64,000 bases of DNA, taken from the IMG/VR virus record IMGVR_UViG_3300037245_001167, positions 7,101 to 71,100 of that record, one strand, 5' to 3'. The first letter of the stretch is position 1. Every line of letters starts with the position of its first letter. A model generated the notes under the pieces. It was given only the letters and a program-made list of their open reading frames with translations, did no database searches and had not been told where the DNA came from. Below are positions 1,198 through 30,321 of the stretch, in pieces. The DNA is from a virus. Both the position numbers and the translations under genes were made by a program.

Positions 1198-1227
1198 TAG
1201 AAACTTAAAACATAAGGAGTTAAAAAA

Positions 1228-1815: not shown

Positions 1816-3630
1816 ATGGAAAAAGTAAAGATCAATCTTGGTGCCGGCGACGTTCCTATTGACGGGTATGTAAACATCGACCGCAAAACGGGACAAGAGG
1901 CGTATCCATTGGCTTACGAGGATAATTCAGTGGACGAGATACGCGCTTCGCACATCCTTGAACATTTCGGGATGAATGAAGTGCCTAAAGTGATAAAGAA
2001 CTGGGCAGACAAATTGAAACCGGGGGGGCTGCTTAAAATTGCAGTTCCTGATTTTGATAAGATTATCGAACAGTATAAGGCCGGCGATCCCAAGACAGCA
2101 GGATATGTTTGTGGCGGGCAAATTGACGACAACGATTACCACAAAAGCATATTCGACCGAAGATCACTAACTACGCATCTTGAAAAGGCGTGTCTATCTG
2201 ACATCAAGCATTGGGACAGCGAGATAGTCGATTGTGCAAGCCTGCCGGTCAGCCTTAATTTGCAAGCGACCAAGACAAGTGGAAGCCCTGAACTAAGAGA
2301 AATGCTTGATGGCTTTATGGCAAGGAAGAAAAATGTATATTCGCAGTATGGCGAAGATGGCATTATTGAAGCCATGTTTGAAAAAGTTGAGATAAAAAAT
2401 AAATGGTGTTTGGAAGTTGGTGCCGCTGATGGGATTTTGTTTTCAAATACTCGGCGATTGGTGGAGCAGGGCTGGAATGCCATTCTCGTCGAATCAGAGA
2501 AGCTTGCTTACGACAGGCTTGTTGAAAATTGCAAGGATTATCCGAATGCTCATCCTGTATTTGCAGAGATTGGGCAGGATTGCACATTAGAAAGCATTCT
2601 TGAGAAGTTTAATGCTCCCAAGGATATTGACTTGGTAGTTATTGATATAGACGGCCAAGATTACCACGTTGTTAATGCGATGATGAATTACAAGCCGAGG
2701 ATATTGGTCGTTGAGTATAAGCCAGAAATCGATACTGAATTTATTCCTACTCTTGGCGGCCAAGGACAGGCAGGTGCAGCGGCAATGGAACGGCTGGGCA
2801 GCTCTAAGGGGTATCGGGCTATGTTAATAACAGACTGTAATCTTATTATGATGCACAGTTCGTTATTCAAAATAGTTGATGAATCAAAAATTCCAGCTAT
2901 GCCGAGGCCGGAAACAGTAAGTACAAAAATAGGGGCAATTATGTCATGTCCCCGTCTTGGATTTACCAATAATTTAATGTGTCATACTAAAGTTTTCGCG
3001 CCGATGGGAATTGATTTTAATGTGGGATATGGCGTGTTCTGGGCACAGATACTTACAAGGATGATAGAGGAGCAAATAGCAAAAGGTATGGACTTGATTG
3101 CCATTTTGGATTATGATAGCTATTATCTAAAAGAGCATTTCTTGGCATTATGTCAGATTATGTTGAGTCATCCGGAAGCCGATGCCATTTTGCCGGTACA
3201 AATTAAGCGGGAAAATGACAGGGTACTGGCTGGCGTAGATGACCCGGTTAAGGCCAACTGTGAATATGAAGCCGATACTGAATTAATTGAAATCGATACC
3301 GGGCATTTCGGCTTAACTTTATTCAGAGCATCGTCATTCGCCAAACTCAAAAAGCCGTGGTTCCTTGCCGTACCGGATAAAAAGGGTGAATGGGGCGATG
3401 GCAAGCTGGATGATGACATTTATTTCTGGAAGAACTTGAGAAAGAGCGGGCTTAAAGCATTTCTTACGCCGCAGGTTTTGATTGGTCACATGCAACTCAT
3501 GGTGACGTGGCCCGGCACTTTCGAGAAAGGGTCAAAACCAATTCATCAGTATATAAATACTTGCACCGAAGAAGGCATTCCAGATTGTTGCAGGGTTTCT
3601 AAAAATTATGTTCCAAAACAAATAAAATAA
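1816..3630 (+). CDS. Three-domain enzyme: class I SAM methyltransferase + FkbM-like methyltransferase + GT-A (GT2-like) glycosyltransferase
   Basis: INLGAG..GYVNID..ASHILEH..LKPGG; YSQYGEDGII..LEVGAADG..SNT..VIDIDGQDY; ILDYD..GHFGLTLF..DDDIYFW..IGHM. Confidence 0.75.
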   Translation: MEKVKINLGAGDVPIDGYVNIDRKTGQEAYPLAYEDNSVDEIRASHILEHFGMNEVPKVIKNWADKLKPGGLLKIAVPDFDKIIEQYKAGDPKTAGYVCGGQIDDNDYHKSIFDRRSLTTHLEKACLSDIKHWDSEIVDCASLPVSLNLQATKTSGSPELREMLDGFMARKKNVYSQYGEDGIIEAMFEKVEIKNKWCLEVGAADGILFSNTRRLVEQGWNAILVESEKLAYDRLVENCKDYPNAHPVFAEIGQDCTLESILEKFNAPKDIDLVVIDIDGQDYHVVNAMMNYKPRILVVEYKPEIDTEFIPTLGGQGQAGAAAMERLGSSKGYRAMLITDCNLIMMHSSLFKIVDESKIPAMPRPETVSTKIGAIMSCPRLGFTNNLMCHTKVFAPMGIDFNVGYGVFWAQILTRMIEEQIAKGMDLIAILDYDSYYLKEHFLALCQIMLSHPEADAILPVQIKRENDRVLAGVDDPVKANCEYEADTELIEIDTGHFGLTLFRASSFAKLKKPWFLAVPDKKGEWGDGKLDDDIYFWKNLRKSGLKAFLTPQVLIGHMQLMVTWPGTFEKGSKPIHQYINTCTEEGIPDCCRVSKNYVPKQIK

Positions 3631-3645
3631 TAAGGAGAATTTGAA

Positions 3646-3969
3646 ATGAAGAAAATCAAAATGAGAATGTTAAAAGCGTGGGGGCCGTTTGTCCCCGGAC
3701 AGATTGTGGTATTTGCCGAGAGCAAAGCGAAGTGGGCGATTGGCGATGGTATTGCTGAGAAATACAAGATCAGCAAGGCCGAAATAAAAGCCAAGGCCCA
3801 GGCTGAAAAGGACGCCAAAGACAAGGCTAAAAAGGAGGCCAAAGATGCTAAAGACAAGGCTGAGAAAGAGGCCAAACAAAAAGCGGAAGCTGAAACCGCA
3901 ATGGTTGAGCCAGTTGCCGAGACAGCCGACGTCAGACCGTTGGGCAATAAAAAGAAAAGGGGTAAATGA
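3646..3969 (+). CDS. Lys/Ala/Glu-rich small phage protein
   Basis: RBS aaggag; AEKDAKDKAKKEAK repeats; N-terminal ..PGQIV..A.WAIGDGIAE module like small head-region genes. Confidence 0.5.
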   Translation: MKKIKMRMLKAWGPFVPGQIVVFAESKAKWAIGDGIAEKYKISKAEIKAKAQAEKDAKDKAKKEAKDAKDKAEKEAKQKAEAETAMVEPVAETADVRPLGNKKKRGK

Positions 3970-4307
3970 TGGGTAGTGAAGCATTGAAAATTCACAGGGC
4001 CACCGGCAATGTGGCGATAGCTTCGACCCTCGCGGCTACCAGGCCAATTAACATTGTGGCCGTCAAGCTGCACTTGTCTGCCGCAGGCGGTGCCGCCGAG
4101 AACTTTACTGTCACAATAGATTCGGCCACAGACCCCGTCTACGATACGGTTTTATTCAGTCAGGACATGACGACTGTGCAGGACATCTCCTGGGTTCCTG
4201 AATCGCCAATTCCGGTAATGGGTAACGACGAGATTGACTTTGCTTACAATAACGGCAACACCAGAACCTATGGTCTTGAGGTCACATATAGCCTGATAGG
4301 AGTATGA
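3966..4307 (+). CDS. Hypothetical virion-type protein
   Basis: Translationally coupled, beta-rich composition. Confidence 0.5.
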   Translation: MMGSEALKIHRATGNVAIASTLAATRPINIVAVKLHLSAAGGAAENFTVTIDSATDPVYDTVLFSQDMTTVQDISWVPESPIPVMGNDEIDFAYNNGNTRTYGLEVTYSLIGV

Positions 4308-4308
4308 T

Positions 4309-4773
4309 ATGCTGACGATAAACGGGAAAATTACTGAATTATTCTCGGATGTTCAGGTGAACGGTTCGCTGAAATTGGCAGATGGCTCGACAGGTGGTCT
4401 TTCGATTGTAGCTGCCGAAGCAGCAGCGGATATAGCGGCGGCGGCCACGATTACGATTCATGTTAATGTGCCGACTGGCTCGCGGCTATTGGGCTGCCAG
4501 TTGCGGGTTGATGCCGCTCTGGCTGCTACCGAAACATGGGACGCTGTATATGTGACCGGGGCAACTCAGTCGATAGCCACAAATCAGGCGGTTGCTGTCA
4601 ATACCAAGGTCGTCCAGCATTTCGACGTCAATACGGATACCGATATAGCATCTGGTGAAGTCGATATAACTATCGAAAAGAATTCTAATCCCGGCGTCGA
4701 TGCTTTTTCTGCTCAAGGTAATATTCGGGCGATTGTGTATTACACAGCATTTAACGCGATGGCGGACGTATAG
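4309..4773 (+). CDS. Hypothetical virion-type protein
   Basis: Coupled ORF with RBS ggag; Ala/Thr/Val-rich. Confidence 0.5.
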   Translation: MLTINGKITELFSDVQVNGSLKLADGSTGGLSIVAAEAAADIAAAATITIHVNVPTGSRLLGCQLRVDAALAATETWDAVYVTGATQSIATNQAVAVNTKVVQHFDVNTDTDIASGEVDITIEKNSNPGVDAFSAQGNIRAIVYYTAFNAMADV

Positions 4774-4784
4774 AAAGGCATATT

Positions 4785-5228
4785 ATGTTGATGTTGGATG
4801 GAAGACTATCGACGAATCAGCAAGTCGAGGCACTGGGCAAGAACAATCTGATACAGGATATCACATTTGCCAATAGTACCGGAACCGTGTCTGTATTTAC
4901 CGTTACCGGGGATGTTCTTATTAGGATCATTCCTATTATTACAACGGACTGTGTGCCGAATACAACGGCGAACATCCGGTTAGGGGTTGTCGGAAATACC
5001 GATGCGATGATTGTCGATTCTGCGAGTGCCGACCTTGACGCTCGCGGCATTTGGGTAGATCAGACCCCGGACAACGAAATCGAGCCGATAGATCGCATCC
5101 GGTCATATATAGTCACGGACGGTAACGATGTCGTTTTGACTTTGGATGCTCAAGTTAATAGCGGCGTGATTAGATTCTATGGCTTTTGGACTCCAATTTC
5201 GGGGGATGGCATGGTGATAAATGCATGA
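4785..5228 (+). CDS. Hypothetical virion-type protein
   Basis: RBS aaagg; beta-sandwich-like composition. Confidence 0.5.
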   Translation: MLMLDGRLSTNQQVEALGKNNLIQDITFANSTGTVSVFTVTGDVLIRIIPIITTDCVPNTTANIRLGVVGNTDAMIVDSASADLDARGIWVDQTPDNEIEPIDRIRSYIVTDGNDVVLTLDAQVNSGVIRFYGFWTPISGDGMVINA

Positions 5229-5264
5229 GAATGAACACATACGAGTGCGAAAGGTGAGTGTGTA

Positions 5265-5711
5265 ATGGCTAAAGAACACATAGCGGGCAGAGCGACTACT
5301 TTTGACAAGGTCGAGGTAATGGAGGAGCACATGCACAGTATCAGTCAGGTATATCCAACGCTCGTTGTTGGGATACCTATACTTGCCGGTGCTGCTGGGC
5401 CTCCGTGGGTACCTGGCAATTTTGTTGAGTTAATACCCGTAAACACAATCGGCGAGGATTTCGACATTCACTGGTTAGTTATTGAAGGCATATCTAACGA
5501 TGGAATATACGAACTCGTATTTTATGCGGCAACGACAGAAATATCAAGGGTAAGATTTTCCGCCGAAGCAGGCGTAGGTGGAACAGTCACTTACTCTCCA
5601 ATTCCGATACAAACGAGAATACAGCCAAAGAATACTCAAATACAATGCAAGCTCGCGTGTTCTGCGGGGGCAGAGACGGCAACTATTTCAGTTATCTATC
5701 ACGAATATTAA
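5265..5711 (+). CDS. Hypothetical virion-type protein
   Basis: RBS ggtga; beta-rich. Confidence 0.5.
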   Translation: MAKEHIAGRATTFDKVEVMEEHMHSISQVYPTLVVGIPILAGAAGPPWVPGNFVELIPVNTIGEDFDIHWLVIEGISNDGIYELVFYAATTEISRVRFSAEAGVGGTVTYSPIPIQTRIQPKNTQIQCKLACSAGAETATISVIYHEY

Positions 5712-5738
5712 AAACAGATGAACAGATGGAAGAAAGAC

Positions 5739-6689
5739 ATGAAATATATCCTTAAAAACTATCAGAGTCCCGGCGACATCGTAATGCTGACGGCTGCGGT
5801 TAGAGATTTGAAACTATCGCATCCCGAAATAGAGATCGATGTCGATACCGGCTGCTCGGAGTTGTGGGAGAACAATCCCCATCTCACTAAGGGAATTGAC
5901 GGCAAGCGTATCAAAGCCGATTACCCTCTAATTCACGAGAGCAATGAAGGCCAGCATCATTTCATCCACGCCTTCAGGCAGTTTTTGGAGAAGGAACTGG
6001 ATGTCAGAATAAAGCCGACAACATTCAAAGGTGATATTCATATCAGCGACGAGGAGAAAGGCTGGACTTCGCAAGTCGAGGACATGGGGATTAAAGACAG
6101 GTTCTGGATTATCAATGCAGGCGGCAAGTACGACTTCACCGCTAAATGGTGGAGCCTAATTTCGTATCAGAAGGTGATTAACCACTTCAAAGGCAAGATT
6201 ACATTTGTTCAGGTTGGACAGAAGGAGCATTGGCATCCAAAACTGCACGGCGTCGTGGACCTAATCGGCAAGACCGACCTGCGGCAGTTGATTCGTCTGG
6301 TATATCATTCATCCGGTGTGGTTACGGGGGTTAGCCTACTGATGCACCTTGCAGCGGCCATAGAGTCGAAGCACGGCCTGTTAAACCGGCCGGGGGTAAT
6401 TATAGCTGGTGGCAGGGAACCCGTGCAGTGGGAGGCGTACCCGCACCACAGATACCTTGCTGTTAATGGCGCAATGACCTGCTGCGATAACGGCGGATGC
6501 TGGAAGAGCCGGTGCCAGTTGGTGGGCGATGGCGATAAGAAGGATACCGAGGAATTATGCCTGCATCCGGTCGAACTCAGGACGAAGCCGCCGATCCGAA
6601 TCCCGAAGTGCATGGACATGATTAAGGCCGAGGATGTGATACGTGCAATTCAGACATATTACACCGGGGGCGTATTGGAGTTCAATTGA
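5739..6689 (+). CDS. GT9 (heptosyltransferase-like, GT-B) glycosyltransferase
   Basis: SPGDIVMLTAAVRDLK..HP, LWENNPH, K.W, DLIGKTDLRQL, SLLMHLAAA. Confidence 0.85.
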   Translation: MKYILKNYQSPGDIVMLTAAVRDLKLSHPEIEIDVDTGCSELWENNPHLTKGIDGKRIKADYPLIHESNEGQHHFIHAFRQFLEKELDVRIKPTTFKGDIHISDEEKGWTSQVEDMGIKDRFWIINAGGKYDFTAKWWSLISYQKVINHFKGKITFVQVGQKEHWHPKLHGVVDLIGKTDLRQLIRLVYHSSGVVTGVSLLMHLAAAIESKHGLLNRPGVIIAGGREPVQWEAYPHHRYLAVNGAMTCCDNGGCWKSRCQLVGDGDKKDTEELCLHPVELRTKPPIRIPKCMDMIKAEDVIRAIQTYYTGGVLEFN

Positions 6690-6954
6690 AAGGAGAGTAA
6701 GAAATGGAAACCGATACAATAGAACGGGCATGTCTGAAAATATTGTCTGGATTAAAATCTGGAAGATTTACGAGACTGGAATTGGAAATGCTATATGCAC
6801 TTTTTTCAAAACTGGTTGGAATAACCAAGAAAATGTTAGGAAAGTAAGATATGAAAACAAAAAATAGAAAGTCCATTCTTGTTCCAATACCAAGGAGCAT
6901 AAACCGTTGGATACAGCGCAACAAAGTAACTAAAGGAAAAAAGGGAATAGACTA

Positions 6955-7977
6955 TTGATAGCGATATTCTCAAAATTTGATATGGATGGCGGCTCAGAGC
7001 GAAGGTGCGTAGAGCTTGCCAATGGGATAATGAGGCACACGCCTCATCGCGCATGTATTCTGGCCGAGAAGGAATTTCCTGAGTCGCTGAAGGTATTGGT
7101 TGATGAGGGGGTAACGATAGTCCCAAACGCTCTATTAAAGCCGGAACACTTTGTTACAGCCCGATGTGTGATTGTAGTTAATACCGACTGCCGGGAGTTC
7201 TCTACGATGGATTATTGGAGTGGGAAAAGCCATCGTCATTCCACGCCAGTTCCCATTAGGAATATTAAGAAGATGCTGTTCTTATATAATTTCTTAGTGA
7301 GTCCGTCTCAGCACTTGCACGAAATCGCGGAGTTTGTGAATGTTGGTATTATCACAACCAACCTGAAATTTTATAACGAGATAACCAAGCAGGACAGGTA
7401 CGAAAGGATTCGGACATTACCGAGATATATTTTGGGCAGCCCAATCGACCCCGGTGCTATAAAGGTCAGGGTGCGTGATAAGGCCAAAATTTTCGGCTGT
7501 CATTCCAAGCGGCTCGGCAGTAAGTGGAATCCCGACTGGCCGAAGTTGGAAGAGAAGATAACGCGCAGATATTCATTGGCAGAGTTTCGATTTATGGGGA
7601 TGAAGGACTCCATCGCCAAGGGCATGAAAGGGTCGTGTCTCAAAGAGAACGAAAAGCCGGTAGCCGATTTTCTCGACGAGCTGGATGTGTTCGTATTCTT
7701 CCCTGAGTACAAGCGTGAGGAGCCGTGGGCAAGGGTTATCGCCGAGGCTATGGTGGCTGGCCTGCCGATAGTGGCTCTTAATAGGGGTGGGACTTCCGAT
7801 CAGGTTCTCACGTGGAATAATGGGATATTGTGCAAGAAGTTCGATGATTATCACAAGGCTCTTGTTTACCTGATAGAGCATCCAAAAGTGATAGAGACAA
7901 TGAGCCGGAACTCTATACGTATATCAAAAGAGTTTCATACCGAGAACGTAATCAAGAAGTTGATGGAGATTATCTGA
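6955..7977 (+). CDS. GT4-type (GT-B) glycosyltransferase
   Basis: N-terminal GGSER; C-terminal DVFVF..EEPWARVIAEAMVAGLPIVA.NRGG (EX7E), NGIL. Confidence 0.85.
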   Translation: MIAIFSKFDMDGGSERRCVELANGIMRHTPHRACILAEKEFPESLKVLVDEGVTIVPNALLKPEHFVTARCVIVVNTDCREFSTMDYWSGKSHRHSTPVPIRNIKKMLFLYNFLVSPSQHLHEIAEFVNVGIITTNLKFYNEITKQDRYERIRTLPRYILGSPIDPGAIKVRVRDKAKIFGCHSKRLGSKWNPDWPKLEEKITRRYSLAEFRFMGMKDSIAKGMKGSCLKENEKPVADFLDELDVFVFFPEYKREEPWARVIAEAMVAGLPIVALNRGGTSDQVLTWNNGILCKKFDDYHKALVYLIEHPKVIETMSRNSIRISKEFHTENVIKKLMEII

Positions 7978-8134
7978 TATGGGTAAGGCGACAATAATAA
8001 CGAGGTTTTGGTTTTGGGTATATCGTTGGTCACGAAGACTGACAGATTATTCTGAAAAAACAGCCGATCATCGCTATTTTAGAGAATGCAACCCAAATTC
8101 GATATGGCGGTCAGAGTTAAGGGACTAAAATAGT

Positions 8135-8956
8135 ATGATTCCGTGCAAAGCGATGACAATGTGGGATGGTGAGATAAAAGAGCCAGTCGTCAAACAATAC
8201 ACGATATCTTTTTGTATGAGCTGCCAGAATAGGATGCACAATTTGCGGGGTACTTTATTAGATAACCTAAAGAGGAATGAATCTTATCCATATTCAAATT
8301 TTATCTTAGTGGATTATAATTCTCAGGACGGATTGGAAGGCTGGGTAAAAGATAACACGATGGAACATATCGAAAGCGGGCGACTTGTCTATTATAAGAT
8401 GGTTGATCCGCAGCCGAAATACTTTAACTTTAGTCATGCAAGGAACGTATCCTTCCTCCTTGCAGATGGTGAGATAGTCAATAATCTTGATATCGACAAC
8501 TGGATATACAATGACAAAAACGGGAGGCAGAAGGGAATGTGCTGGGCGGCCTACCTGAATCTTCTTGCTAATCAGCAGAGCAGCAAGGTCATATTCGCCA
8601 AAGGCCGGAGGCGGATGCACGGCAGGTGCGGATTCTACAAAGACGAGTTTGTGAATGTCCTGGGCGGGTACGATGAAGGTATAAAAACGTATGAGGATTA
8701 TGACCTTGTTATCCGAGCGTGGAATTTGGGATTCACGATGTATTATTGGGGTGGCTGTTTTGAGAAACGGATTCACACAACAGTAGAAGAAAGAGACTCT
8801 GGTTGCGAGGGTGATTTCTTTGAGGGGGTAGAAAAAGCGAGAAGTAAGTCAGAAAGCAATGTGAGGAACAAGATATTCAAAGCAAACGCAGGCAGGCAGT
8901 GGGGCAAAGCTACTCTTATAAAGAACTTTACAGAGGAAGTAACGATATGGGCATGA
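8135..8956 (+). CDS. GT2/GT7C-like glycosyltransferase
   Basis: ISFC.SC.NR, ILVDYNSQDG, FSHARN, NLDID (DxD), LGGYDEG..YEDYDL..R. Confidence 0.85.
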   Translation: MIPCKAMTMWDGEIKEPVVKQYTISFCMSCQNRMHNLRGTLLDNLKRNESYPYSNFILVDYNSQDGLEGWVKDNTMEHIESGRLVYYKMVDPQPKYFNFSHARNVSFLLADGEIVNNLDIDNWIYNDKNGRQKGMCWAAYLNLLANQQSSKVIFAKGRRRMHGRCGFYKDEFVNVLGGYDEGIKTYEDYDLVIRAWNLGFTMYYWGGCFEKRIHTTVEERDSGCEGDFFEGVEKARSKSESNVRNKIFKANAGRQWGKATLIKNFTEEVTIWA

Positions 8957-9576
8957 ATACAGATTCATACGATTTCTTATTGGAGTCAACGAAGGCTGTT
9001 GGGATAAAAACCTTCAGAGATAAATGGCTGCTTGAATTAGGTAATCAATATATAAGGCCAAATCTCAGGACGAATCACAAGATTAACACTGAGATGTCAA
9101 AAGTCCACTTCCTCAACATGGGCTGTTATCACCATTCTATTGATTGGAATGGTAAGGACGGGGCTATACCTATTGACTTAACTTATCCCGTTCCCATACC
9201 TAAATTTATGAAGTGCTTTGATATTGTAACTGACTTCGGCGATATGGAGCATGTACGTGGATTCAGGGATTGGATGGAGGGGCTTGGGCATTGGAACGCA
9301 TGGAAGAACATTCACGATATGGGCAAGGTGGATTGTCTATATGTTCATACAGTGCCGATGGTCGGGTCATTCACGCATCACGGAAGTTATCATTATACGA
9401 TTGAGTTCTTTGAGAAATTATGCAAAGCGAATGACTACGAGATAGTGGCGTTGAGGTCAGTACAGTGCGATCCTCGAACCAAGACAAGAGAGTATGTATT
9501 TTGCTCGTATGTAAAAAGTGTAGACCAGGGCTTCGCCCCTGTACATGAAGTATTCAAGGGGTGGCTCCATCGCTAA
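8947..9576 (+). CDS. Putative SAM-dependent methyltransferase
   Basis: LLELGNQ, SIDWNG..IDL, FDIVTDFGDMEHV resemble class I methyltransferase motifs; sits in the glycosylation cluster. Confidence 0.6.
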   Translation: MGMNTDSYDFLLESTKAVGIKTFRDKWLLELGNQYIRPNLRTNHKINTEMSKVHFLNMGCYHHSIDWNGKDGAIPIDLTYPVPIPKFMKCFDIVTDFGDMEHVRGFRDWMEGLGHWNAWKNIHDMGKVDCLYVHTVPMVGSFTHHGSYHYTIEFFEKLCKANDYEIVALRSVQCDPRTKTREYVFCSYVKSVDQGFAPVHEVFKGWLHR

Positions 9577-10327
9577 AGTACATAGAATAAGTTTCTGCAC
9601 GACCTGTATGAACAGGCTGGATGATTTGATGATTACGCTGCCGGCGAATATCTATGCGAACGAGGATTATCCAGATTTGGAGTTTGTCCTGCTGGATTAT
9701 AATTCGTCTGATGGATTAGGTAATTGGATCAGGCACAGAATGATGAAGCATATCAATAGTGGCCGATTGGTCTATTACCGAACCGAAGATCCTGAGCATT
9801 ACAGCATGACCCATTCGCGTAACGTGGCGTTCAAGTTGGCGACTGGTGATATTGTCAATAGTGTGGATGCTGACAACTTTACTTTTGATGGTACGCCGGT
9901 GGCCGTGTCATTTGCACACTGGCTCAATGACCGCGCGAATGAGAACCCAGAAAAGACAGTATTTTGCAAGACGAAGCAGATAACCGTTATGCACGGGCGG
10001 ATAGGTTTTTACAAGAATGAGTTCATGGAGCTGGGCGGGTACAATGAGGATTTCAAAGGCTATGGGCACGACGACTTGGATTTAGTAGATAGGGCTGTGG
10101 CGTTAGGCTTCAAACTCGTCAAGTGGGGAAGTGGATATTTTTACCGAATCCAGACGTCATCAAAAAAGAAGGATATCAATCTTTCTGAGCATTGGGACAA
10201 GACGAGGCGGGAGAACAGGGAACTCTCGTGGAAGAACCTTGCCGAGAGTGTATTCGTAGCCAATCAAGGCAGGGAATGGGGCAAGGCAATCGTGACGAAG
10301 AATTTCAAAGAAAAGGTGGAAATATGA
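9545..10327 (+). CDS. GT2/GT7C-like glycosyltransferase, paralog of 8135..8956
   Basis: ISFCTTCMNR, LLDYNSSDG, HSRNVAF, SVDAD, LGGYNE.F.GYGHDD.DL. Confidence 0.85.
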   Translation: MKYSRGGSIAKVHRISFCTTCMNRLDDLMITLPANIYANEDYPDLEFVLLDYNSSDGLGNWIRHRMMKHINSGRLVYYRTEDPEHYSMTHSRNVAFKLATGDIVNSVDADNFTFDGTPVAVSFAHWLNDRANENPEKTVFCKTKQITVMHGRIGFYKNEFMELGGYNEDFKGYGHDDLDLVDRAVALGFKLVKWGSGYFYRIQTSSKKKDINLSEHWDKTRRENRELSWKNLAESVFVANQGREWGKAIVTKNFKEKVEI

Positions 10328-16764: not shown

Positions 16765-16766
16765 TT

Positions 16767-17288: not shown

Positions 17289-17292
17289 TATT

Positions 17293-18700: not shown

Positions 18701-18703
18701 TCT

Positions 18704-19105: not shown

Positions 19106-19127
19106 ATAATTTTGAAAGGGTAACACA

Positions 19128-19544: not shown

Positions 19545-19571
19545 AATTGAAATACGAAAGGAAAATTATCT

Positions 19572-20248: not shown

Positions 20249-20267
20249 GAATTAAGGAGATATAAAA

Positions 20268-20792: not shown

Positions 20793-20829
20793 CAATAGAA
20801 GAATAAAAATGAATTAAGGAGATATAAAA

Positions 20830-21342: not shown

Positions 21343-21358
21343 GATTAAGAGGTGACAA

Positions 21359-23545: not shown

Positions 23546-23555
23546 GGGACGGATT

Positions 23556-24803
23556 ATGGCATATAAAATAGGTTTTGCAAACGGGCATAAAGAGTTGCTG
23601 GTTGCCGTCAAGGGCTTCCTGACAGACGCTAAAAAGGCGTGGAACATCACGGCGGGGGCTAATACGGGTGATGGCTATGTATCGGCTGAGCGGGCAGGTG
23701 CGGCCCCTATTGATGAAACGTGGACACTGACTGCGACGACTGCTACTAATTTCACGGTAGTCGGCGGAGTTTCCGGCGCTCAGGGAGCGGCTACGGTCGC
23801 TACGCCATACGATAATGGGATAGTCGCCTTCACAATAATTCAAGGCGATATCCTGTTTGTTGGTGGCGATTCGTTCACTTTCGTCGTAGTCGATGGCCTT
23901 GGTGGGACGGAGTTATACACGACGATGCGTTATGATACCGATTACGACGCCGTGGGCGGCCATGAGCTGATTCTAAAGGGGGTGGGTACGGCAGGTACGG
24001 ATGAGATATATACAGCCATACAGACGGTCGAGGACGGCGGGAACGACTGGTACAATTGGCGGATCGCCGGGATGACGAGCTATACAGCCACAGATTTAGA
24101 GTACATGCCGGGTTTGACTCAGGGTCGGATGGCTCGATTATTGTTATGGCAGGAAAAGATTCAATACTGGTGTGTGGCTAATGGTCGGCGGTTTATCGTA
24201 GTAGCGAAAGTCTCGTCAGTTTACGAGGCTTCGTATCTCGGCTTTGCTTTGCCGTATGGCCTGCCGACTCAGTTTCCTTATCCGTTGGTTGTCGGTGGTG
24301 CGGCGAGTCCTGATAATACGGCGATTGAAAACAGATATAGTACAACCCATGTAACTCATCGAGGCTTTGCGAATCCTTACGCAAATGCGGCTACGGTGTG
24401 TACGGCTTCAGTATTTGATACAACGAGTGATTATTCGACATTGAAAATTTTACAGGGGACGAGCTGGATAAAAATATTCGGTAAAACGGGTACGACAATA
24501 CAAAATACGAATATTGTTTGGCCTTATAGCTGTACTGATATAAGTAGTGCCTACCATCCTCATATTTTCAGTAACGATTTGCGGGAAAATATTGATGGTA
24601 CATATCCGGTATTTCCAACTGTGCCAATGATTGAGAATCCATCGAACCATATTGTGGGTGAATTGCAGGGAGTCTTTGCCGTTAATGGATTCGGTGGGAT
24701 AGCCGCCGAGGATACCTTTGCAATAAATGGCGGCACTTATGTTGCATTTCCTATTCTACCGAACGCCGATGCAAATGATTTTTGGGCTTTGAAATTGGAG
24801 TAA
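23556..24803 (+). CDS. Tail-associated virion structural protein
   Basis: ANGRRFIVVAKV..YEASYLG...PY..P.QFPYPL.V.G and GELQGVFAV resemble post-tape-measure proteins of D3112/YuA-like siphoviruses. Confidence 0.7.
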   Translation: MAYKIGFANGHKELLVAVKGFLTDAKKAWNITAGANTGDGYVSAERAGAAPIDETWTLTATTATNFTVVGGVSGAQGAATVATPYDNGIVAFTIIQGDILFVGGDSFTFVVVDGLGGTELYTTMRYDTDYDAVGGHELILKGVGTAGTDEIYTAIQTVEDGGNDWYNWRIAGMTSYTATDLEYMPGLTQGRMARLLLWQEKIQYWCVANGRRFIVVAKVSSVYEASYLGFALPYGLPTQFPYPLVVGGAASPDNTAIENRYSTTHVTHRGFANPYANAATVCTASVFDTTSDYSTLKILQGTSWIKIFGKTGTTIQNTNIVWPYSCTDISSAYHPHIFSNDLRENIDGTYPVFPTVPMIENPSNHIVGELQGVFAVNGFGGIAAEDTFAINGGTYVAFPILPNADANDFWALKLE

Positions 24804-24807
24804 TATT

Positions 24808-26004
24808 ATGTCATATCAAGCAGGTGTAAGTACAGGGCCGAACGATTTAATAAGCAAACTGGAAACCTTTCTCGTGGCCGAAGGATGGACGGTTAATTTG
24901 TCTGCTGGTATTGGGGCCGGGCATCGGCTTCACGTCCAAAAGACGGCCGCCGATACAACGGAGATGTACTTCAATTTCCGTTCGGCAATCGCGGAAACCG
25001 GAACGACTTTGATTACCGAAGATAACGATGGGGGTGCAAATGGCACTGTGACTGGTTTGGTTGTCAATGGTTCGACTGGTTATAATGGCGGCTCGCTTTG
25101 GCATGTCCAGCCAGGATACCCACAAAACTTAACTGATGCTAATACTTCGTTTGGTTGCGTAATGTCGCCAATGTCAACGACTGCGATTCCGGCGTATTAT
25201 TTCTTTACGCCAGACTCGGATTCCGATACCGTTCATATTGTGGTCGAGGTGACGGCAGGCAAATTTCAGTTCATGTCATTAGGGATGATGGTAAAGCAGG
25301 GAACGATTACCGGAGGTCAGTATTTTTCGGCTTCATTTAGTAGCCACCAGCCGTATTATGATTGGGCTACGAGTGGTCTGAATCGTGACGGTTCGAGATA
25401 TTTTCAAAACGAGCCTTATGACAATCAAGCCTGTAATGGTGCGGTTTATGTAGATGTTGACGGAGATGCGAGCTGGAGAAATGCGGGATACCGGGTCTCT
25501 AATGACCAAATTATTTTCCCCTGCCCATCCCCAAGCGATGCCCTTCCCGATATACACAAAGAAGGCATGGCATCATTCTTTTATTCAAAGTCTCCCGATG
25601 CATACAATGCAATGGCGGCAATGTGTCCTATTTATACTTTTTTGGAACGAGACGATGACAACTATTCATTGATAGGATGGCCGGATGGCGTGCGGTTTTT
25701 GAATACTACCAATTACGACCCTGCCGAGGAAATAACCTATGGAGCAGAGACATGGACAGTCTTTCACGCCGATAGTTTAGAAGGCGACCCACAGAATATG
25801 TTTACGGGTTTCGCATATAAAAAGGTATCATCCAGTTCATCGTCAAGCTCGAACTCAAGCTCGTCAAGCTCTGTATCCAGTAGCCATAGTTCATCGAGTC
25901 ATTCGAGCAGTTCGCACTCAAGCAGTAGCAGTTCTATATCGTCGAGTCACAGCAGTTCGTCGCATTCGAGCAGTAGTCACTCAAGCAGTAGTAGTTCAGA
26001 TTAA
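24808..26004 (+). CDS. Tail virion protein with C-terminal Ser/His tag
   Basis: MSYQ.G..TGPNDL..KL..FL...GWTV start; P.EEIT.G.ETW.VF; Ser/His tract at 25828-25998. Confidence 0.7.
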   Translation: MSYQAGVSTGPNDLISKLETFLVAEGWTVNLSAGIGAGHRLHVQKTAADTTEMYFNFRSAIAETGTTLITEDNDGGANGTVTGLVVNGSTGYNGGSLWHVQPGYPQNLTDANTSFGCVMSPMSTTAIPAYYFFTPDSDSDTVHIVVEVTAGKFQFMSLGMMVKQGTITGGQYFSASFSSHQPYYDWATSGLNRDGSRYFQNEPYDNQACNGAVYVDVDGDASWRNAGYRVSNDQIIFPCPSPSDALPDIHKEGMASFFYSKSPDAYNAMAAMCPIYTFLERDDDNYSLIGWPDGVRFLNTTNYDPAEEITYGAETWTVFHADSLEGDPQNMFTGFAYKKVSSSSSSSSNSSSSSSVSSSHSSSSHSSSSHSSSSSSISSSHSSSSHSSSSHSSSSSSD

Positions 26005-26016
26005 CGGAGTAAGTAA

Positions 26017-27714
26017 ATGCCAGCTTTCACAGGAATATTAGAACCGAGCATTTTTGTCGAGGACACGTTACGTTGTTCGGCCACAATCGCAGCGGCCCTC
26101 ACTCCCAGCCCGGTCGCACCAATGCTTCCATTAGAATCGGTCATTCCACTCGGTGATAGTTCATGGCATAGCTACCTGCCCGTCGAGCAGATTGAGCGGC
26201 TAAGAACGGGCACGAAGGTCGATTCGTTCCTCGACGATTACTATTACCGAATCCACGTAACGCCCGCGACGTTCGCGTTCGGTGCGGTACTGTCTGAATT
26301 GATCGACGAGTTTTATGTATGGAATTCATTTTTTGTCCAGAAGACCTGCGATGATATTACCGAAACATTTCCCGATGAATTTGAATTGGACGGACTGGCT
26401 GACCCGTTCGACCTTGAGGCTTTGGAATACACAACCTATACAATCACAGTACCGAAGGAAGGTTCAGCAACGTTTGAATCAACTATCACATTTGATTTCG
26501 GGACGGCTGGAATGAGGGTGGTAGTTCTCAACGGTACAAGGCTGATAGTATTCGCATTCACCCCGTTATTAAAAATACCTGAATCGCTGGAATGGCTGAC
26601 TGATATTATAACTCCGAGGGATGGTATCGGTTCGGAGCAGCGGATGAGCGTTAGGACTATTCCGAGGCAGAGATTCACGTATTCAGTGCCGTTGAAAACC
26701 GAAAAGGAGCAGAGCAGGTTCGAGGCCGTGATGTTCGGTTGGCAAAAGAGGTCTTTCGGGCTTCCTATATGGACGGAGCGAGTCACACATACAGCGACAA
26801 TAACGGCGGCCGATGATACTATTACCGTCGATACGACAAATGCGGATTTCAGAGATGACAGCTACGCTATAATCTGGAAGTCCATTACAGAATACGAGGC
26901 GGTGAAGATAGATACCGTTGCTGCTGGGCTACTCACGCTCGAATCGCCGGTAGTTGATACATATACCGGAACGAAGTTTATCCTCCCGCTGCGGATAGCT
27001 CAAGTCAATTCATCGGTCAAAAAGAGCAACTTGTCAGCCGGTTTGATGATAGCTACGGTTGGATTCTCGGTGAAGGATAATATCCTGCAAACCGGATACA
27101 CGCCAGCCACGACTTACAAGACCTTCCCCGTTCTGGAGGTTGGCTCGAAGCAGTTCGGCAGAATATCAAAAGCCAGTGGCTCGGACAGCGATTCATTTAC
27201 TCAGGATTACAAAAGCGGTGACTTCGACTACTACAGTGATTCCGAATTTAATATGATAAGTCAGGGATGGGGTTTCGTTAATGAGGACAAAGCCGCCTGT
27301 TGGGACTTCCGACTTTTCCTGCATTCATTATATGGTATGCAGGGCACGGTTTGGGTGCCAACATACAAAGATGACCTGGCCCAGGCAGATACTATCGGTG
27401 CGGCCGATACAGATTTCCAGATTGAGAATATCAAGTTGGCTGAGAATATGACGTTCAATACACTCAGAACTCACTTGGCATTTATCCTGCCAGATGGTAC
27501 GACCTATTACAGGGAGATTACAGGCATTGTTGAACTCGATGATAATATCGAGGTCATATCAATCGATGCGTTTCTGGGTGAAGAAATTGCCGTTGGCGGG
27601 TGTATGATAAGCTTCCTCGACTTGTGCCGAAGGGCTTCGGATACGGCCCTGATGGACTGGTTCTTTTTCGACCATAATAATATCAACGAAACATATATGG
27701 CGGTAGTAGAATGA
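26017..27714 (+). CDS. Distal tail / tail-tip structural protein
   Basis: DDYYYRIHV.P, ESLEWLTD, EQR..R..PRQ.F, FL..L.G....W.PT. Confidence 0.7.
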   Translation: MPAFTGILEPSIFVEDTLRCSATIAAALTPSPVAPMLPLESVIPLGDSSWHSYLPVEQIERLRTGTKVDSFLDDYYYRIHVTPATFAFGAVLSELIDEFYVWNSFFVQKTCDDITETFPDEFELDGLADPFDLEALEYTTYTITVPKEGSATFESTITFDFGTAGMRVVVLNGTRLIVFAFTPLLKIPESLEWLTDIITPRDGIGSEQRMSVRTIPRQRFTYSVPLKTEKEQSRFEAVMFGWQKRSFGLPIWTERVTHTATITAADDTITVDTTNADFRDDSYAIIWKSITEYEAVKIDTVAAGLLTLESPVVDTYTGTKFILPLRIAQVNSSVKKSNLSAGLMIATVGFSVKDNILQTGYTPATTYKTFPVLEVGSKQFGRISKASGSDSDSFTQDYKSGDFDYYSDSEFNMISQGWGFVNEDKAACWDFRLFLHSLYGMQGTVWVPTYKDDLAQADTIGAADTDFQIENIKLAENMTFNTLRTHLAFILPDGTTYYREITGIVELDDNIEVISIDAFLGEEIAVGGCMISFLDLCRRASDTALMDWFFFDHNNINETYMAVVE

Positions 27715-28508
27715 CATATAACGATTACGAAATATCAGCAGCTTCCGGCCAGCCGGTTGAACTATACGATATAGCGATGGGCTTGACTCACTGGCGATTA
27801 GCCAGCGGTGGTGAGGACGTCGAGTATATGGGGCACACTTACGAATCGGCTCCGTGCGAACGAACTGAGATAGAGCAGACGGGCGAAATACCGAAGGACG
27901 GTATTGAGGTTAATTTGCCGAGAGGCCACGCGCTCGGCGTGATATGTATAGCGGGTGTCCCGGAAGAAGAAATCACCTTAATTCTATACCGACTTCACGG
28001 TGCGTTTAGCGTAACGTATTTCCGGGGGTTTATGACTAACATGAAATTTGACGGCGATGCAATTCCGATAGCATTCTTTGAGCCGAGAAGTTCGGACTTA
28101 CCTTTCGTTGGTGGACGGCGGCGATGCATGAGGATTTGTGGGCATAAGTTATATGGCTATCGTTGCGGAGTTGATAAAGAAGCATACAAGATTATCGATA
28201 CGATCGATACGATAAGCGGGATAACTATCACAGCGACGGAGTTCGGGATTACTGCTTATGATTTCAGTTCAGGTGGCGAGATTATAGTCGGCACGGCTCG
28301 CCGGACAATAGTTTCGCACGCTGGGATTACGATAACGATTAATCGTCCATTTGGTTCTGATGTGTTGGCAGGCGATGCGTTTTCCGCCTATCCAGGCTGT
28401 GACCATACACCAACAACTTGTGATACGGATTATTCCAATATTGATAATTACGGTGGTCTTGCGTTCCTGCCGACCAAGAACCTTTATGCAGGCGATTTGA
28501 TATACTGA
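27711..28508 (+). CDS. Tail-tip protein, BR0599/DUF2163-like (gpL-type Fe-S motif)
   Basis: PVELY, C...LY...CGV, AYPGCDHT..TC...NYGG..FLP..N. Confidence 0.8.
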   Translation: MTYNDYEISAASGQPVELYDIAMGLTHWRLASGGEDVEYMGHTYESAPCERTEIEQTGEIPKDGIEVNLPRGHALGVICIAGVPEEEITLILYRLHGAFSVTYFRGFMTNMKFDGDAIPIAFFEPRSSDLPFVGGRRRCMRICGHKLYGYRCGVDKEAYKIIDTIDTISGITITATEFGITAYDFSSGGEIIVGTARRTIVSHAGITITINRPFGSDVLAGDAFSAYPGCDHTPTTCDTDYSNIDNYGGLAFLPTKNLYAGDLIY

Positions 28509-28515
28509 GAGAATT

Positions 28516-30321
28516 ATGATAGAAACTTTTCCAATTATAGCAGTGGCTGACCCGTTTACTATATGGCTTGTCACTTTTTTGATAACGCTGGCGTTATCCG
28601 TAGGCATTGCCTATCTTACAAAAAAAGATCCCAAAGACATAAGGTATGATCCCGACACTTTTAATTTCCCAGAGATAAAAGAGGGAACGAAGTTTCCAAT
28701 TATAGCCGGTACATGCTGGCAGACGGCTCCGATTATCGCGTGGTTCGGCGATATAAAGACCGAGGCGGTTAGGGTTCGTCTATCTGATACCGACGGCCAA
28801 AATGTATATCTGAATAAATACTTCTATGGGGCACATCATATTCTCGCACAGGGTTTCTGTGATGGCGTAGTGCAGACCAAGGTTGCCGACTTAGTTATCT
28901 GGCCTGACGAAACGGACAAGACCGTACTGAACGCAGACGCCGCCGCCTCGGCGATAATTGACCTACCAGAATTATACGGTGGCATTCACGAACACAATGC
29001 AAGCATAACCGGGCAGGGCGGAATTATAGGGACGATCGATTTTCAATATGGATTACCTGACCAGACGCTCAATAGTTATCTCGAAAGCGTACAGGGAGCA
29101 GGCGTATCGGCCAATCGCGGACTAACGGCAGCGATATTGCGACAGCCCTGGATTGGCATGTCAACCTCACCGCTGCAATGGAAATATCTCGTTAAGCGAA
29201 CGGAACACTTGACGACCGGCGAGGAACAGTGGTATGTAGCGAAGGCGACTATCCGAAATTATGAGATTAATCCTATTCACTGGCTTCGGGAAATCTACAC
29301 AGACACTGAGTGGGGGCTGGGGTATCCCGCTGCGATATTCGATAACGCTACTTTAGAGGCGGCAGCCGATGACCTATATGACGAAGGCTTTGGTATTTGC
29401 ATTAAATGGGAAGGCGATCAGTCGCTTGAGGATCACGTTAAAGATATTCTCAGATATATAAACGCCGTAATCCGAGAGGATTATTCGACCGGGCAACTCG
29501 AAATAAAATTGATTCGTGATGATTACGTTTTAGGTGCTCTCGAAGAGTTTGACGAGACTGATATTAATACCGTAGAGGATTATTCGCGGGGAGTTATCCA
29601 TAAAGTTGCCGATGTAACATACGTCAAATATTGGAGTTTGTACGACAACCTTCCGGTAACTATTCCTAATCACGACATGGCATTAGTCAGTGTCCAGAAC
29701 GAAATGCTCATTCCTAACAATGTCGATTATACCGGTGTTGTCAACGATGACTTGGCTGGGCAACTGGCGGCCCGTGACCAGTATCAGATTTCAGCATTCC
29801 CGGCGGTAATGAAAATCAAAGCCAAGCGGACAATGGCACACCTGATGGCAGGCGATGTTTTCAAGTTGACCTGGCCGCCGCTGGGTATTATCTCGATGGT
29901 AGTCCGTATAGTAACGCCGCATTATGGAACGCTAACTGATGGTGAAGTTTCGTTCGACTGCGTAGAGGATATATTCGGAATGAAAGATTCTCTGTTCGGC
30001 GTTCCGCCAGCTACGGGGTGGTCTGATGTCGTAGCCGATCCAGAATATGATGAAGATTATCTGATAGCTCAAATGGCCCTGGATACCGTTGACCCGACAG
30101 TTGTTGTTACCAGCTCTTCGTCATCGAGCCTGTCATCCAGCTCGCACAGCTCTTCCAGTCACAGTTCAAGCAGCAGTTCGGTATCGAGCAGTCATTCGAG
30201 CAGTAGCAGTTCTATTTCATCGAGCCATTCGAGCAGCAGCCATAGTTCAAGCTCTCATTCGAGTAGCTCGCATAGTAGTAGTCAATCATCGTCACATAGT
30301 TCGTCGAGTAGTTCAGATTAA
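28516..30321 (+). CDS. Central tail / tail-tip protein with C-terminal Ser/His tag
   Basis: EG...PI.AGT, LYGG, NPIH...E..TD..WGLG, LYDEGFG, KLIRDDY, VEDIF; Ser/His tract at 30112-30315. Confidence 0.75.
   Translation: MIETFPIIAVADPFTIWLVTFLITLALSVGIAYLTKKDPKDIRYDPDTFNFPEIKEGTKFPIIAGTCWQTAPIIAWFGDIKTEAVRVRLSDTDGQNVYLNKYFYGAHHILAQGFCDGVVQTKVADLVIWPDETDKTVLNADAAASAIIDLPELYGGIHEHNASITGQGGIIGTIDFQYGLPDQTLNSYLESVQGAGVSANRGLTAAILRQPWIGMSTSPLQWKYLVKRTEHLTTGEEQWYVAKATIRNYEINPIHWLREIYTDTEWGLGYPAAIFDNATLEAAADDLYDEGFGICIKWEGDQSLEDHVKDILRYINAVIREDYSTGQLEIKLIRDDYVLGALEEFDETDINTVEDYSRGVIHKVADVTYVKYWSLYDNLPVTIPNHDMALVSVQNEMLIPNNVDYTGVVNDDLAGQLAARDQYQISAFPAVMKIKAKRTMAHLMAGDVFKLTWPPLGIISMVVRIVTPHYGTLTDGEVSFDCVEDIFGMKDSLFGVPPATGWSDVVADPEYDEDYLIAQMALDTVDPTVVVTSSSSSSLSSSSHSSSSHSSSSSSVSSSHSSSSSSISSSHSSSSHSSSSHSSSSHSSSQSSSHSSSSSSD

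Follow-up and report, generated by a model that had tools for sequence, protein, structure and literature searches.

Why should a bacteriophage keep six glycosyltransferase-like and five methyltransferase-like domains between its capsid gene and its head-tail adaptor gene? The question is raised by the window analysed here, a stretch of 64,000 nucleotides (nt) that covers bases 7101-71100 of a linear IMG/VR virus record (IMGVR_UViG_3300037245_001167; 71.1 kb, estimated to be 77% complete). Its enzyme cassette runs into a gene for a very large protein with long, nearly pure serine tracts, and similar tracts end two tail-tip proteins. The original prediction read this arrangement as a glycosylation system that brings its own acceptor. 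We confirm the observation, including the number of domains, their positions and their location on the + strand, and its interpretation is partly supported. Judging from comparisons with other phages and with bacteria, we consider it fairly probable that cassette and tracts form a mobile module, in which soluble phage enzymes would O-glycosylate and methylate the serine tracts.

The largest carrier of such tracts is a protein of 1367 amino acids (aa), encoded at 12661-16764 (this and all genes of the window named below lie on the + strand unless stated otherwise). Counted from the ATG at 12667 instead of the TTG at 12661, it has the 1365 aa originally reported, and its 722 tract residues agree with the earlier estimate of about 720. 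An N domain (12661-13305) is followed by tract 1 (13306-13527; 74 aa, 82% Ser), a BNR-like beta-propeller (13528-14700), tract 2 (14701-16644; 648 aa, 80% Ser) and a conserved C-terminal stretch of 39 aa (16645-16761). The same repeat ends two proteins at the tail tip, as had been predicted. One is p687b, a 398-aa tail-module structural protein of PHROG 687 (24808-26004) with a C-terminal tract of 57 aa (25828-25998). The other is tailJ, a 601-aa tail-tip protein (28516-30321) that matches the N-terminal third of the 1405-position profile of PHROG 1101 and has a C-terminal tract of 68 aa (30112-30315). Both PHROG matches are strong (E values of 1e-43 and 8e-110). All four tracts contain 80-84% Ser and are built from the units SSSH, SSSSH and SSSSSSV. 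p687b is the second member of a tandem pair of PHROG 687 proteins (415 and 398 aa; 23556-26004), and the tract is present on this second copy only.

The DNA of tract 2 uses all six Ser codons in mixed order. No exact 36-mer is repeated within its 1,944 nt, and Tandem Repeats Finder reports short, weak arrays only. Recent slippage or the collapse of an assembly would leave long identical DNA repeats; hence the tract is the product of neither. Among its 648 residues there are 2 Thr and 89 His, a His every 4-5 residues. The scrambled codons and the near absence of Thr indicate that selection acts on the tracts at the protein level. Orthologous tracts are found in seven other contigs (L046, L050, L051, L057, L066, L206 and L207). 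Among Logan contigs, those of run X1, which may represent the source sample (the same data put through another assembler), cover positions 10531-15804 with one contig that shows 0 differences, and overlapping pieces account for the remainder; runs X2 and X3 contain small shares of the phage sequence only. Many low-depth joints within the tract are seen in sequencing runs, reflecting related variants or repeats, and there was no RNA run with phage sequence among those listed. An open reading frame (ORF) of 480 aa on the opposite strand (15194-16636) lies entirely inside tract 2, and we take it as a by-product of the repeat.

The enzymes lie between the capsid gene and the large tract protein. 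We assigned them to families by Pfam and NCBIfam scans with curated cut-offs, which covered the 71 ORFs above a lower limit of 80-100 aa. The first gene encodes a 604-aa protein of three domains (1816-3630): a class-I S-adenosylmethionine (SAM) methyltransferase at residues 1-125, an FkbM-like domain at about 175-350 and a GT-A-like domain at about 370-600. The N-terminal domain scores barely above threshold (Methyltransf_11, 22.7 bits vs a cut-off of 21.2), the FkbM stretch scores below it (21.6 vs 22.7 bits in Pfam and 23.7 vs 37.7 bits for TIGR01444), and orthologues of the C-terminal domain give glycosyltransferase (GT) family 2 matches below threshold. In the aligned part of this protein (alignment A4) D92/D94 and D192/D194 are invariant; the profile of the family matched the Protein Data Bank (PDB) in the methyltransferase half only. 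After five small ORFs of 107, 113, 154, 147 and 148 aa for which no function is called (3646-5711) comes a GT9-family GT-B glycosyltransferase of 323 aa (5718-6689; PF01075, 32.5 bits vs a cut-off of 22). It is followed by a GT4-type GT-B glycosyltransferase of 340 aa (6955-7977; PF00534, 41.8 bits) and by GT2a, a GT2-like GT-A protein of 273 aa that stays under the cut-off (8135-8956; 24.7 vs 27.3 bits). The next protein, o225 (225 aa; 8899-9576), has a LELGNQ-type motif of class-I SAM methyltransferases (alignment A3) and no family match in Pfam, PHROGs or NCBIfam. Then come GT2b, a GT2 GT-A glycosyltransferase of 260 aa (9545-10327; PF10111, 41.7 bits; PF02709, 30.4 bits), and two FkbM methyltransferases of 269 aa, counted from a TTG (10192-11001; TIGR01444, 63.3 bits vs 37.7), and 221 aa (10991-11656; 51.7 bits, same cut-off). 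The last enzyme is o241 (241 aa; 11653-12378), which has a D-L-D (DxD) motif and the predicted fold of a retaining-type GT-A enzyme (GT8/GT6-like). A 106-aa CxxCxxCC metal-binding protein (12363-12683; PF03692) separates it from the tract protein.

Hence most of the domain identities that were originally proposed stand, with GT2a, the C-terminal domain of the 604-aa protein and two methyltransferase calls being sub-threshold or motif-only. Profiles and structure together support GT9, GT4, GT2b and o241. GT2a is likely a paralogue of GT2b, as both cross-match the same genes of relatives in tblastn searches. The last 136 nt of GT2b (10192-10327) are shared, in a different frame, with the start of the first FkbM gene. 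The overlapped part is matched in the relative L045, and it is uncertain whether the overlap is real or the true start lies later. For o241 there is no Pfam match, and the ESM Atlas returns unnamed viral clusters plus one with 11% PF03407. Its alignment (A2) contains an invariant D-L-D and an invariant H-x-H-P. The AlphaFold model (predicted local distance difference test, pLDDT, 82.7) has as top Foldseek matches GlyE (E value 6.5e-8), alpha3GalT, glycogenin and LgtC, all at about 1e-7 and with ties down to 7.8e-7; on this predicted fold we call it a retaining GT-A enzyme. Apart from the methyltransferase match, PDB sequence searches with GT9, GT4, o241 and the propeller, and with profiles A1, A2 and A4, yielded no useful result.

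How did these genes come to lie where they do? The structural genes of the window form a siphovirus-type block. The 7.1 kb of the record upstream of it encode the small and large terminase, portal and S78 prohead protease. The window continues with the major capsid protein (99-1157), a 166-aa ORF and the cassette region. The head-tail adaptor (17266-17838) is followed by head closure, neck and tail terminator genes, and the tape measure (21359-23545) by five tail-tip genes, the last of which ends at 30321. All cassette and tract genes lie on one strand within this block with short gaps, and within 1-20000 predicted promoters and terminators are no more numerous than in shuffled sequence. A tblastn search of 50,697 deposited phage records found no close relative of the capsid protein (best identity 31%). 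Related capsids at 44-68% identity are present at 25 loci, and 21 of the 25 contigs reach far enough downstream for a comparison. Their order is capsid, 166-aa ORF, a methyltransferase/GT-A-like fusion of 390-560 aa, sometimes one or two small ORFs or one large ORF, and adaptor. As far as the contigs extend, there is no GT9, GT4 or o241 at any of the 25 loci, and no serine tract within a long ORF. By this comparison the cassette is an insertion that arrived together with the tracts, and relative to the shortest capsid relatives the gain amounts to about 13.3 kb (3966-17265). In several relatives the place immediately ahead of the adaptor is taken by a large, variable protein, of 1028 aa in L013 and 967 aa in G002, a ConA-like lectin protein in L010 and a beta-helix protein in L045, which fits a position for fibre-type cargo.

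Cassette and tract protein also occur together in genomes with other backbones. The GT9 has tblastn matches at 18 viral loci. One of these records, G012 (37.6 kb, 90% complete), has no tblastn match to the structural proteins of the window; PHROGs named none of 16 ORFs from this record, and two matched generic families or families of unknown function. On one strand it carries GT4, o225, GT2b, FkbM and o241 in the order of the window (47-73% identical), then a 136-aa ORF and a 1115-aa protein with 612 residues of SSSSH tract. It has two further tract ORFs, and its GT9 (76% identical) lies elsewhere in the record. The 461-kb record L029 carries GT9, GT4, GT2, FkbM and o241, and no more than 190 bp further on an ORF begins that has SSSSSSV tracts and spans at least 994 aa. 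In L045 the cassette precedes a beta-helix protein, a near-pure tract protein of 473 aa and the adaptor. A Chthoniobacterales assembly (L196:10001-20732) has GT9, GT4, GT2 and o241 before a 2297-aa protein that combines SSSSH tracts with RHS repeats, and the nearby efflux and histidine-kinase genes indicate a chromosomal context. In the window, G012, L029 and L196 o241 is the last enzyme before the tract protein, either adjacent to it or with one short ORF between (106 or 136 aa), and one gene separates the two in L045. GT4 accompanies GT9 in L028, L029, L030, L035, L036, L045, G012, L128 and L196. These gene orders support the view that the cassette and a large SSSSH protein recur as a unit, on an unrelated phage backbone, in a 461-kb phage and on a bacterial chromosome. 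Such co-transfer would be unexpected if their functions were unrelated, that is, if the tracts were unmodified flexible spacers or stalks and the cassette acted on the host envelope (lipopolysaccharide, LPS, core or O-antigen, as in superinfection exclusion) or on phage DNA.

The same association is seen for GT9 on its own. As a tract ORF we counted any open frame of at least 100 codons in which at least 25 residues fall into 20-residue windows with at least 13 Ser. In the sequence available, tract ORFs are present in 9 of the 18 viral records with a GT9, and in 5/5 of those that are at least 90% complete. No tract ORF occurs in the seven records without GT9 (243 kb; six capsid relatives and the tail-module relative G001, a 50-kb record with tract-less tails whose sequence stops in the tape-measure gene). 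The GT9 subfamily is large: a word-indexed search returned 4294 proteins at E values up to 1e-3, and in species-representative genomes there are 258 confirmed stretches. We analysed the best 80 of these 258 as bacterial loci; they were scanned for with two subfamily motifs, so that membership holds by construction. They come mostly from Planctomycetota, Verrucomicrobiota and Acidobacteriota, and isolates are included. At 44 of the 80 loci, which are bacterial or from metagenome-assembled genomes (MAGs), a tract ORF lies within 10 kb of GT9. In the nearest 0.5 kb around GT9, tract ORFs reach a density of 15.6 per 100 kb vs 0.58 per 100 kb at 5-10 kb, a difference of about 27-fold; 20 lie within 1 kb and 3 at 5-10 kb (conditional binomial p ~1e-10, with loci taken as independent although they are partly related). 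The outer flanks of the same loci serve here as an internal control for base composition and for wrong-frame artefacts. Tract ORFs share the strand of GT9 in 38 of 50 cases and never overlap it, and their commonest place is directly upstream. The genomic pattern strongly links the GT9 subfamily to poly-Ser ORFs. The steep decay with distance and the shared strand around GT9 are again not what one would expect of spacers beside an unrelated cassette. That enzymes and acceptor belong together, as was first proposed from the window alone, is borne out by this linkage and by the co-transfer. The reach of the module is wider than first seen, as it extends over several bacterial phyla and over phages that differ greatly in size.

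A particularly compact form is found in Chthoniobacter flavus Ellin428 (L162:9318-11035), where the gene for a 180-aa SSSSH/SSSSQ protein stops 65 bp short of the GT9 start codon (144 bp short of the tblastn match). Ordinary chromosomal genes surround the pair (peptidase, NlpC/P60, FHA-kinase, WD40 and UvrD). This cultured, non-pathogenic verrucomicrobium would lend itself to study of the module as it occurs in bacteria. Among the long relatives of GT9, fusion to Methyltransf_24, FkbM or class-I methyltransferases is very frequent, and some are fused to sulfotransferase, GT2 or TPR arrays. A fusion of GT9 to a tract, which would be a Rosetta-stone case, is absent from the 120 long and the 120 near-length relatives listed. 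Some GT9 relatives of 570-970 aa contain intein or homing-endonuclease domains (PF14528, PF14890), with the query matched in two parts.

One could also argue that the serines are modified in some other way, by phosphorylation or acylation, or that it is the spaced His that act, in metal- or pH-dependent binding, with the GTs being unrelated. The regular His of the long tract would suit such binding, and in C. flavus the FHA-kinase gene lies just downstream of GT9. However, the residue that interrupts the serines is not conserved. It is H or V in the window, V or I in L029, Y, W, D or N in L041 and L044, R in L045 and Q in C. flavus; because it varies across the family, serine is the sole constant of the tracts. 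There is no kinase in the phage cassette, and the linkage to GT9 would be left without an explanation. We therefore regard this alternative as very improbable.

The tract behaves as a transferable tag that is not part of a fold. Among 22 tail-module relatives, a tract is present on 4 of the 9 p687b and 2 of the 17 tailJ orthologues with a covered C-terminus, and where both ends are covered the state of the two proteins is concordant in 5/5 cases. The carriers are unrelated: a tail-tip hub, a PHROG 687 protein, a BNR-propeller protein, an RHS protein, a tail-sheath homologue and stand-alone proteins. The portable acceptor of the original prediction thus finds support in a C-terminal appendage that comes and goes. 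PHROGs named 1 of 13 tract-bearing ORFs of other records, the tail sheath. This 953-aa tail-sheath homologue (phrog_279) has an internal serine tract (L125:90-2948) and belongs to record G019, in which six tract-bearing ORFs lie on the strand of GT9.

The position of the tracts within their carriers bears on the spacer explanation as well. The 74-aa tract 1 sits between two domains, as a spacer might. In this it resembles the Ser runs between the domains of secreted carbohydrate-active enzymes, for which excerpts of the literature use the term polyserine linkers (PMC2699552). In contrast, three of the four tracts in the window have no following domain, since two are terminal and the longest is followed by 39 aa, and the proteins of L045 and C. 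flavus are almost all tract. Unlike polyserine linkers, the tracts are mostly terminal or make up a whole protein, and they are linked to GT9.

What kind of enzyme is the GT9 of the window? Its family match and its two-lobe GT-B fold place it in glycosyltransferase family 9. The AF2 model (pLDDT 88.1) is closest, in a fold search scored by VIA Z, to 3tov (24.6), WaaF (1psw, 21.5), TibC (4rap, 20.5) and WaaC (2h1h, 20.4), whereas the next unrelated GT-B chains score about 11. The NCBIfam equivalogs for LPS heptosyltransferases I, II and III reach 17-24 bits vs cut-offs of 135-569; because these scores are so far under the cut-offs, the protein is not one of the three. Six Cys (255, 256, 261, 266, 281 and 298) are invariant across 28 sequences (alignment A1) and lie in a part of the model with lower confidence (pLDDT 68-74).

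In mechanism the closest known system is the pair formed by a bacterial autotransporter heptosyltransferase (BAHT) and its autotransporter (TibC/TibA, AAH/AIDA-I), in which the gene for the enzyme adjoins that for its substrate. In excerpts of its description, the GT9-fold enzyme TibC O-glycosylates protein Ser and not Thr in the cytoplasm, and has an N-terminal beta-barrel (residues 1-97) and a four-Cys iron finger (339/342/358/370) inserted in the catalytic domain (PMC4358343). The model of the window's GT9 aligns with TibC residues 88-391 (Z 20.5, root-mean-square deviation 3.3 over 260 residues), and in both a Cys-rich part lies late in the catalytic domain. However, the window's GT9 has no N-terminal barrel (323 aa, with residue 1 aligning from TibC 88), its six invariant Cys follow a pattern unlike the iron finger, any equivalence of the two being putative, and sequence similarity to TibC is undetectable. 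Instead of a folded beta-helix repeat, the proposed acceptor is a tract of nearly pure serine that is probably disordered, and the first sugar would here be extended by five more GT-like domains and methylated. Because the barrel is missing and the acceptor is quite different, the GT9 of the window is not a member of BAHT.

In the mechanism that we propose, the phage enzymes would be made with the structural genes and attach sugar to the serine hydroxyls of the tracts. GT9 would most likely add the first sugar, possibly a heptose taken from the ADP-heptose pool of the host. We place it first because it tracks poly-Ser ORFs across bacteria and phages, and because TibC, with the same fold, heptosylates Ser and not Thr while the tracts are nearly free of Thr. 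Extension of the glycan would fall to GT4, the GT2 pair, the GT8-like GT-A enzyme o241 and the GT-A-like domain of the 604-aa protein, and its O-methylation to the FkbM and class-I methyltransferases. Methylation of a sugar added by GT9 would fit, because GT9 relatives are so often fused to methyltransferases. All of this would happen stepwise in the cytoplasm, either ahead of particle assembly or in its course, and the host would supply the nucleotide sugars. Such a model is the simplest one because no transmembrane segments, lipid-carrier genes or nucleotide-sugar genes were found. A crude hydropathy scan saw no transmembrane-like segment in the cassette enzymes, the Pfam scans saw no flippase, polymerase, initiating phosphoglycosyl transferase or Gtr-type gene, and among the 71 scanned ORFs there is no nucleotide-sugar synthesis family, in agreement with what had been noticed earlier.

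Within this mechanism the tract would act as a transferable acceptor tag, placed on two tail-tip C-termini and on more than half of the 1367-aa protein, a fibre-like protein with a BNR propeller. The product would be extended threads bearing sugars, located at the tail tip and on a single large protein associated with the virion, with no coat on the capsid. Here we depart from the original prediction of a glycan brush over the particle, since neither the major capsid protein, nor the 166-aa protein, nor the tail-tube candidates carry a tract, and the carriers at the tail tip are expected to be low-copy.

Does the large protein belong to the virion at all? Conceivably the tracts are glycosylated without decorating virions, the large protein being a glycogenin-like primer or scaffold or a glycoprotein of the infected cell, and the tail-tip tracts being by-products. 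In bacteria, the partners of GT9 are small poly-Ser proteins that stand alone and an RHS protein, all unrelated to virions, and glycogenin is among the proteins that o241 resembles in fold. The 1367-aa protein finds only a match of unknown function in PHROGs, which gives it no virion place and counts against our reading too. On the other side, two carriers are tail-tip proteins by their strong PHROG matches, and the gene for the large protein is flanked by head and adaptor genes, in a slot that holds large lectin-like or beta-helix proteins in relatives. The comparison with an orthologue (L206:1-3684) is also informative: the N domain is 86% identical and the C-terminal 39 residues are kept, whereas the propeller is only 38% identical. 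This pattern looks like that of a fibre with a swappable binding domain, as in receptor-binding proteins. L206 is one of two contigs, both from close relatives (the other being L207), that were confirmed by tblastn among the 258 stretches matched in a protein scan with a pure tract. The propeller family counts 8003 representatives at E values up to 1e-3, with BNR_4 and BNR_2 domains among the relatives and a Ser tract in 1 of 150 listed; the propeller domain as a query found no relative in viral contigs. Given its position and its swapped propeller, we consider a non-virion role of the large protein quite improbable.

Several findings weigh against the module as a whole. Support throughout consists of association. 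Half of the viral GT9 records (9 of 18) are tract-free in the available sequence, although eight of these are short or 3-39% complete. The ninth, G021 (76% complete), encodes a distant GT9 (41% identity); it is a case of GTs without tracts, which the original prediction had named as evidence against itself. The record with the fullest cassette, G008 (27% complete), shows no tract over 55.6 kb. Among the bacterial loci, 36 of 80 have no tract ORF within 10 kb, and some of the poly-Ser ORFs in high-GC loci may be wrong-frame artefacts, although the decay of their density with distance argues that such artefacts are not the main source. The tract-bearing relatives are short fragments. The tract-positive tail modules are the closest relatives of the window (85-93% identity in a neighbouring tail protein vs 56-62% for tract-negative ones, which include L047, L058 and L059), so that the co-occurrence of tracts within this clade counts as one event and not as many.

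Two further points favour the explanation that the tracts are mere spacers and that the cassette has another target. First, the capsid relatives keep the methyltransferase/GT-like fusion though they have no tract (e.g., L010:8801-10423 and L013:11664-13331). Hence this fusion has another target, which could be the capsid or the adjacent small protein. Second, LPS heptosyltransferases are the best-known members of GT9, and the predicted fold matches WaaF and WaaC as well as TibC; it does not separate enzymes that act on proteins from those that act on LPS, and sequence profiles found no solved relative. In addition, phage GTs are commonly assigned to the modification of DNA or of the host surface in the excerpts of two papers (PMC12619734, PMC12801897). 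However, no membrane GT, flippase or Gtr-type gene is seen, nor is there a base-hydroxymethylation gene beside the cassette. Together with the linkage and the tract positions discussed above, this leaves the spacer explanation unlikely, and we continue to favour modification of the tracts.

With respect to biology, virion glycosylation in mycobacteriophages is the closest known case, at least according to excerpts of its literature. To our knowledge, self-glycosylating phage particles have so far been documented for few mycobacteriophages, and we know of no long pure-serine tag among them. Freeman et al. 2023 have reportedly described this glycosylation. Excerpts of two papers report that the GTs of the phages Che8, Corndog and Myrna modify the C-termini of their own virion proteins (PMC12363180, PMC12619734). 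Both systems would thus combine a GT cassette with C-terminal acceptor stretches on virion proteins. In these sources the carriers are capsid and tail-tube subunits, whereas the window has its tracts on tail-tip proteins and on one large protein that is fibre-like. Moreover, GT9 and o241 have no tblastn match at E values up to 1e-5 in the 50,697 deposited phage records, a set expected to include Che8, Corndog and Myrna.

A second comparison, already drawn in the original prediction, is with the serine-rich repeat proteins (SRRPs) of Gram-positive bacteria (Fap1, GspB, PsrP; SdgA/SdgB for SD repeats). It holds by analogy: in both cases a long Ser-rich tract lies beside dedicated cytoplasmic GTs, with a stepwise O-glycan as the product. 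The top fold match of o241 is GlyE from the PsrP pathway, tied with other GT8/GT6 enzymes, and GT4 has weak, sub-threshold matches to SdgA/SdgB among many GT4 families. The likeness does not extend to the hallmarks of the SRRP system, which are a GtfA/GtfB initiating pair and the accessory Sec export genes SecA2, SecY2 and Asp beside the SRRP. In the 71 ORFs Pfam finds no SecA, SecY or Asp family, the single GT4 has no visible GtfB-like partner, and no signal peptide or LPxTG is seen in the system of the window. The tracts differ as well, being runs of 3-7 Ser with one interrupting residue and not S-x dipeptides, and the starter would be GT9 and not GT4.

The third comparison is with chlorovirus PBCV-1, the glycans of whose major capsid protein are N-linked. 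Excerpts of its literature describe soluble GTs of its own and methylated glycans on a virion protein (PMC9614988), and the list of fold matches for o241 includes its A64R at rank 50. Yet PBCV-1 is a giant virus of eukaryotes whose glycans sit on the major capsid protein, it has no serine tag, and there is no homology past the common GT-A fold. In the open-access literature of PMC and in bioRxiv we found no account of GT9-linked poly-Ser tracts or of serine-tract tags in phages.

Currently, bacterial O-glycosylation of Ser-rich tracts is known mainly from Gram-positive adhesins and from BAHT/autotransporter pairs. A wider interpretation of our results, which we offer tentatively and regard as possible rather than probable in its entirety, is that there is a widespread and hitherto undescribed form of protein-Ser glycosylation. 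A distinct GT9 subfamily would read runs of Ser as a tag and would often be fused to or paired with glycan methyltransferases; unrelated phages of 37-461 kb would have captured both for their tail-tip and fibre proteins; and the methylated, mucin-like threads may copy surface glycoproteins of the host, for adsorption or for hiding from host or grazer. If true, the GT9 subfamily would gain a new class of substrate, pure serine tracts. A simple genetic tag would mark a protein for glycosylation and might be useful as a portable glyco-tag. The trait would be common in uncultured environmental phages, very large ones included, and in little-studied bacterial phyla. Finally, thousands of genes annotated as 'ADP-heptose:LPS heptosyltransferase' that lie beside poly-Ser ORFs would acquire a concrete hypothesis for their function.

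Some minor observations concern the neighbourhood of the module. A near-identical fragment of the head region of this phage, with a GT9 93% identical, is present on a 5,945-bp contig (L126) of an assembly labelled Sedimentisphaerales, which is either a binning artefact of the bacterial MAG or a hint at the host. The small 113-, 147- and 148-aa ORFs also lie 5' of GT9 on this contig, and the 113-aa ORF is common to the capsid relatives. A homologue of the PF03692 protein is found in G002 as well, a relative without tracts; o225 is within the cassette of L045 and G012 too. Just before the adaptor of the window, a 173-aa ORF overlaps the 190-aa adaptor by 23 nt (16767-17838). The adaptor ORFs of L010, L013, L045 and G002 are longer, at 285-297 aa with the connector domain in the second half; hence the two ORFs of the window may be a single gene elsewhere.

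Further downstream, two phrog_22694 proteins (174 and 170 aa) form a tandem pair of paralogues at 20268-21342. The 265-aa tail assembly protein (27711-28508) is matched in two pieces about 500 nt apart in many of L046, L048 and L050-L062, which points to either an insertion of about 165 codons in the relatives or a deletion in this phage. Behind the tail genes, on their 3' side, lie speD, encoding S-adenosylmethionine decarboxylase, and a gene for a DUF3326 protein (31110-32496); in L045 the same pair follows directly after the neck protein (9018-10312). These two genes had suggested a cyanophage, an idea that we dropped, as the relatives of GT9 and L126 are found in assemblies labelled Planctomycetota or Verrucomicrobiota; marine-sediment members of these two phyla are candidate hosts. 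Near the end of the record and distant from the structural genes, a ClpP-type protease is accompanied by a third, stand-alone FkbM methyltransferase (61496-63400), which lies outside the cassette at 62516-63400 and scores 48.1 bits for TIGR01444 vs the cut-off of 37.7.

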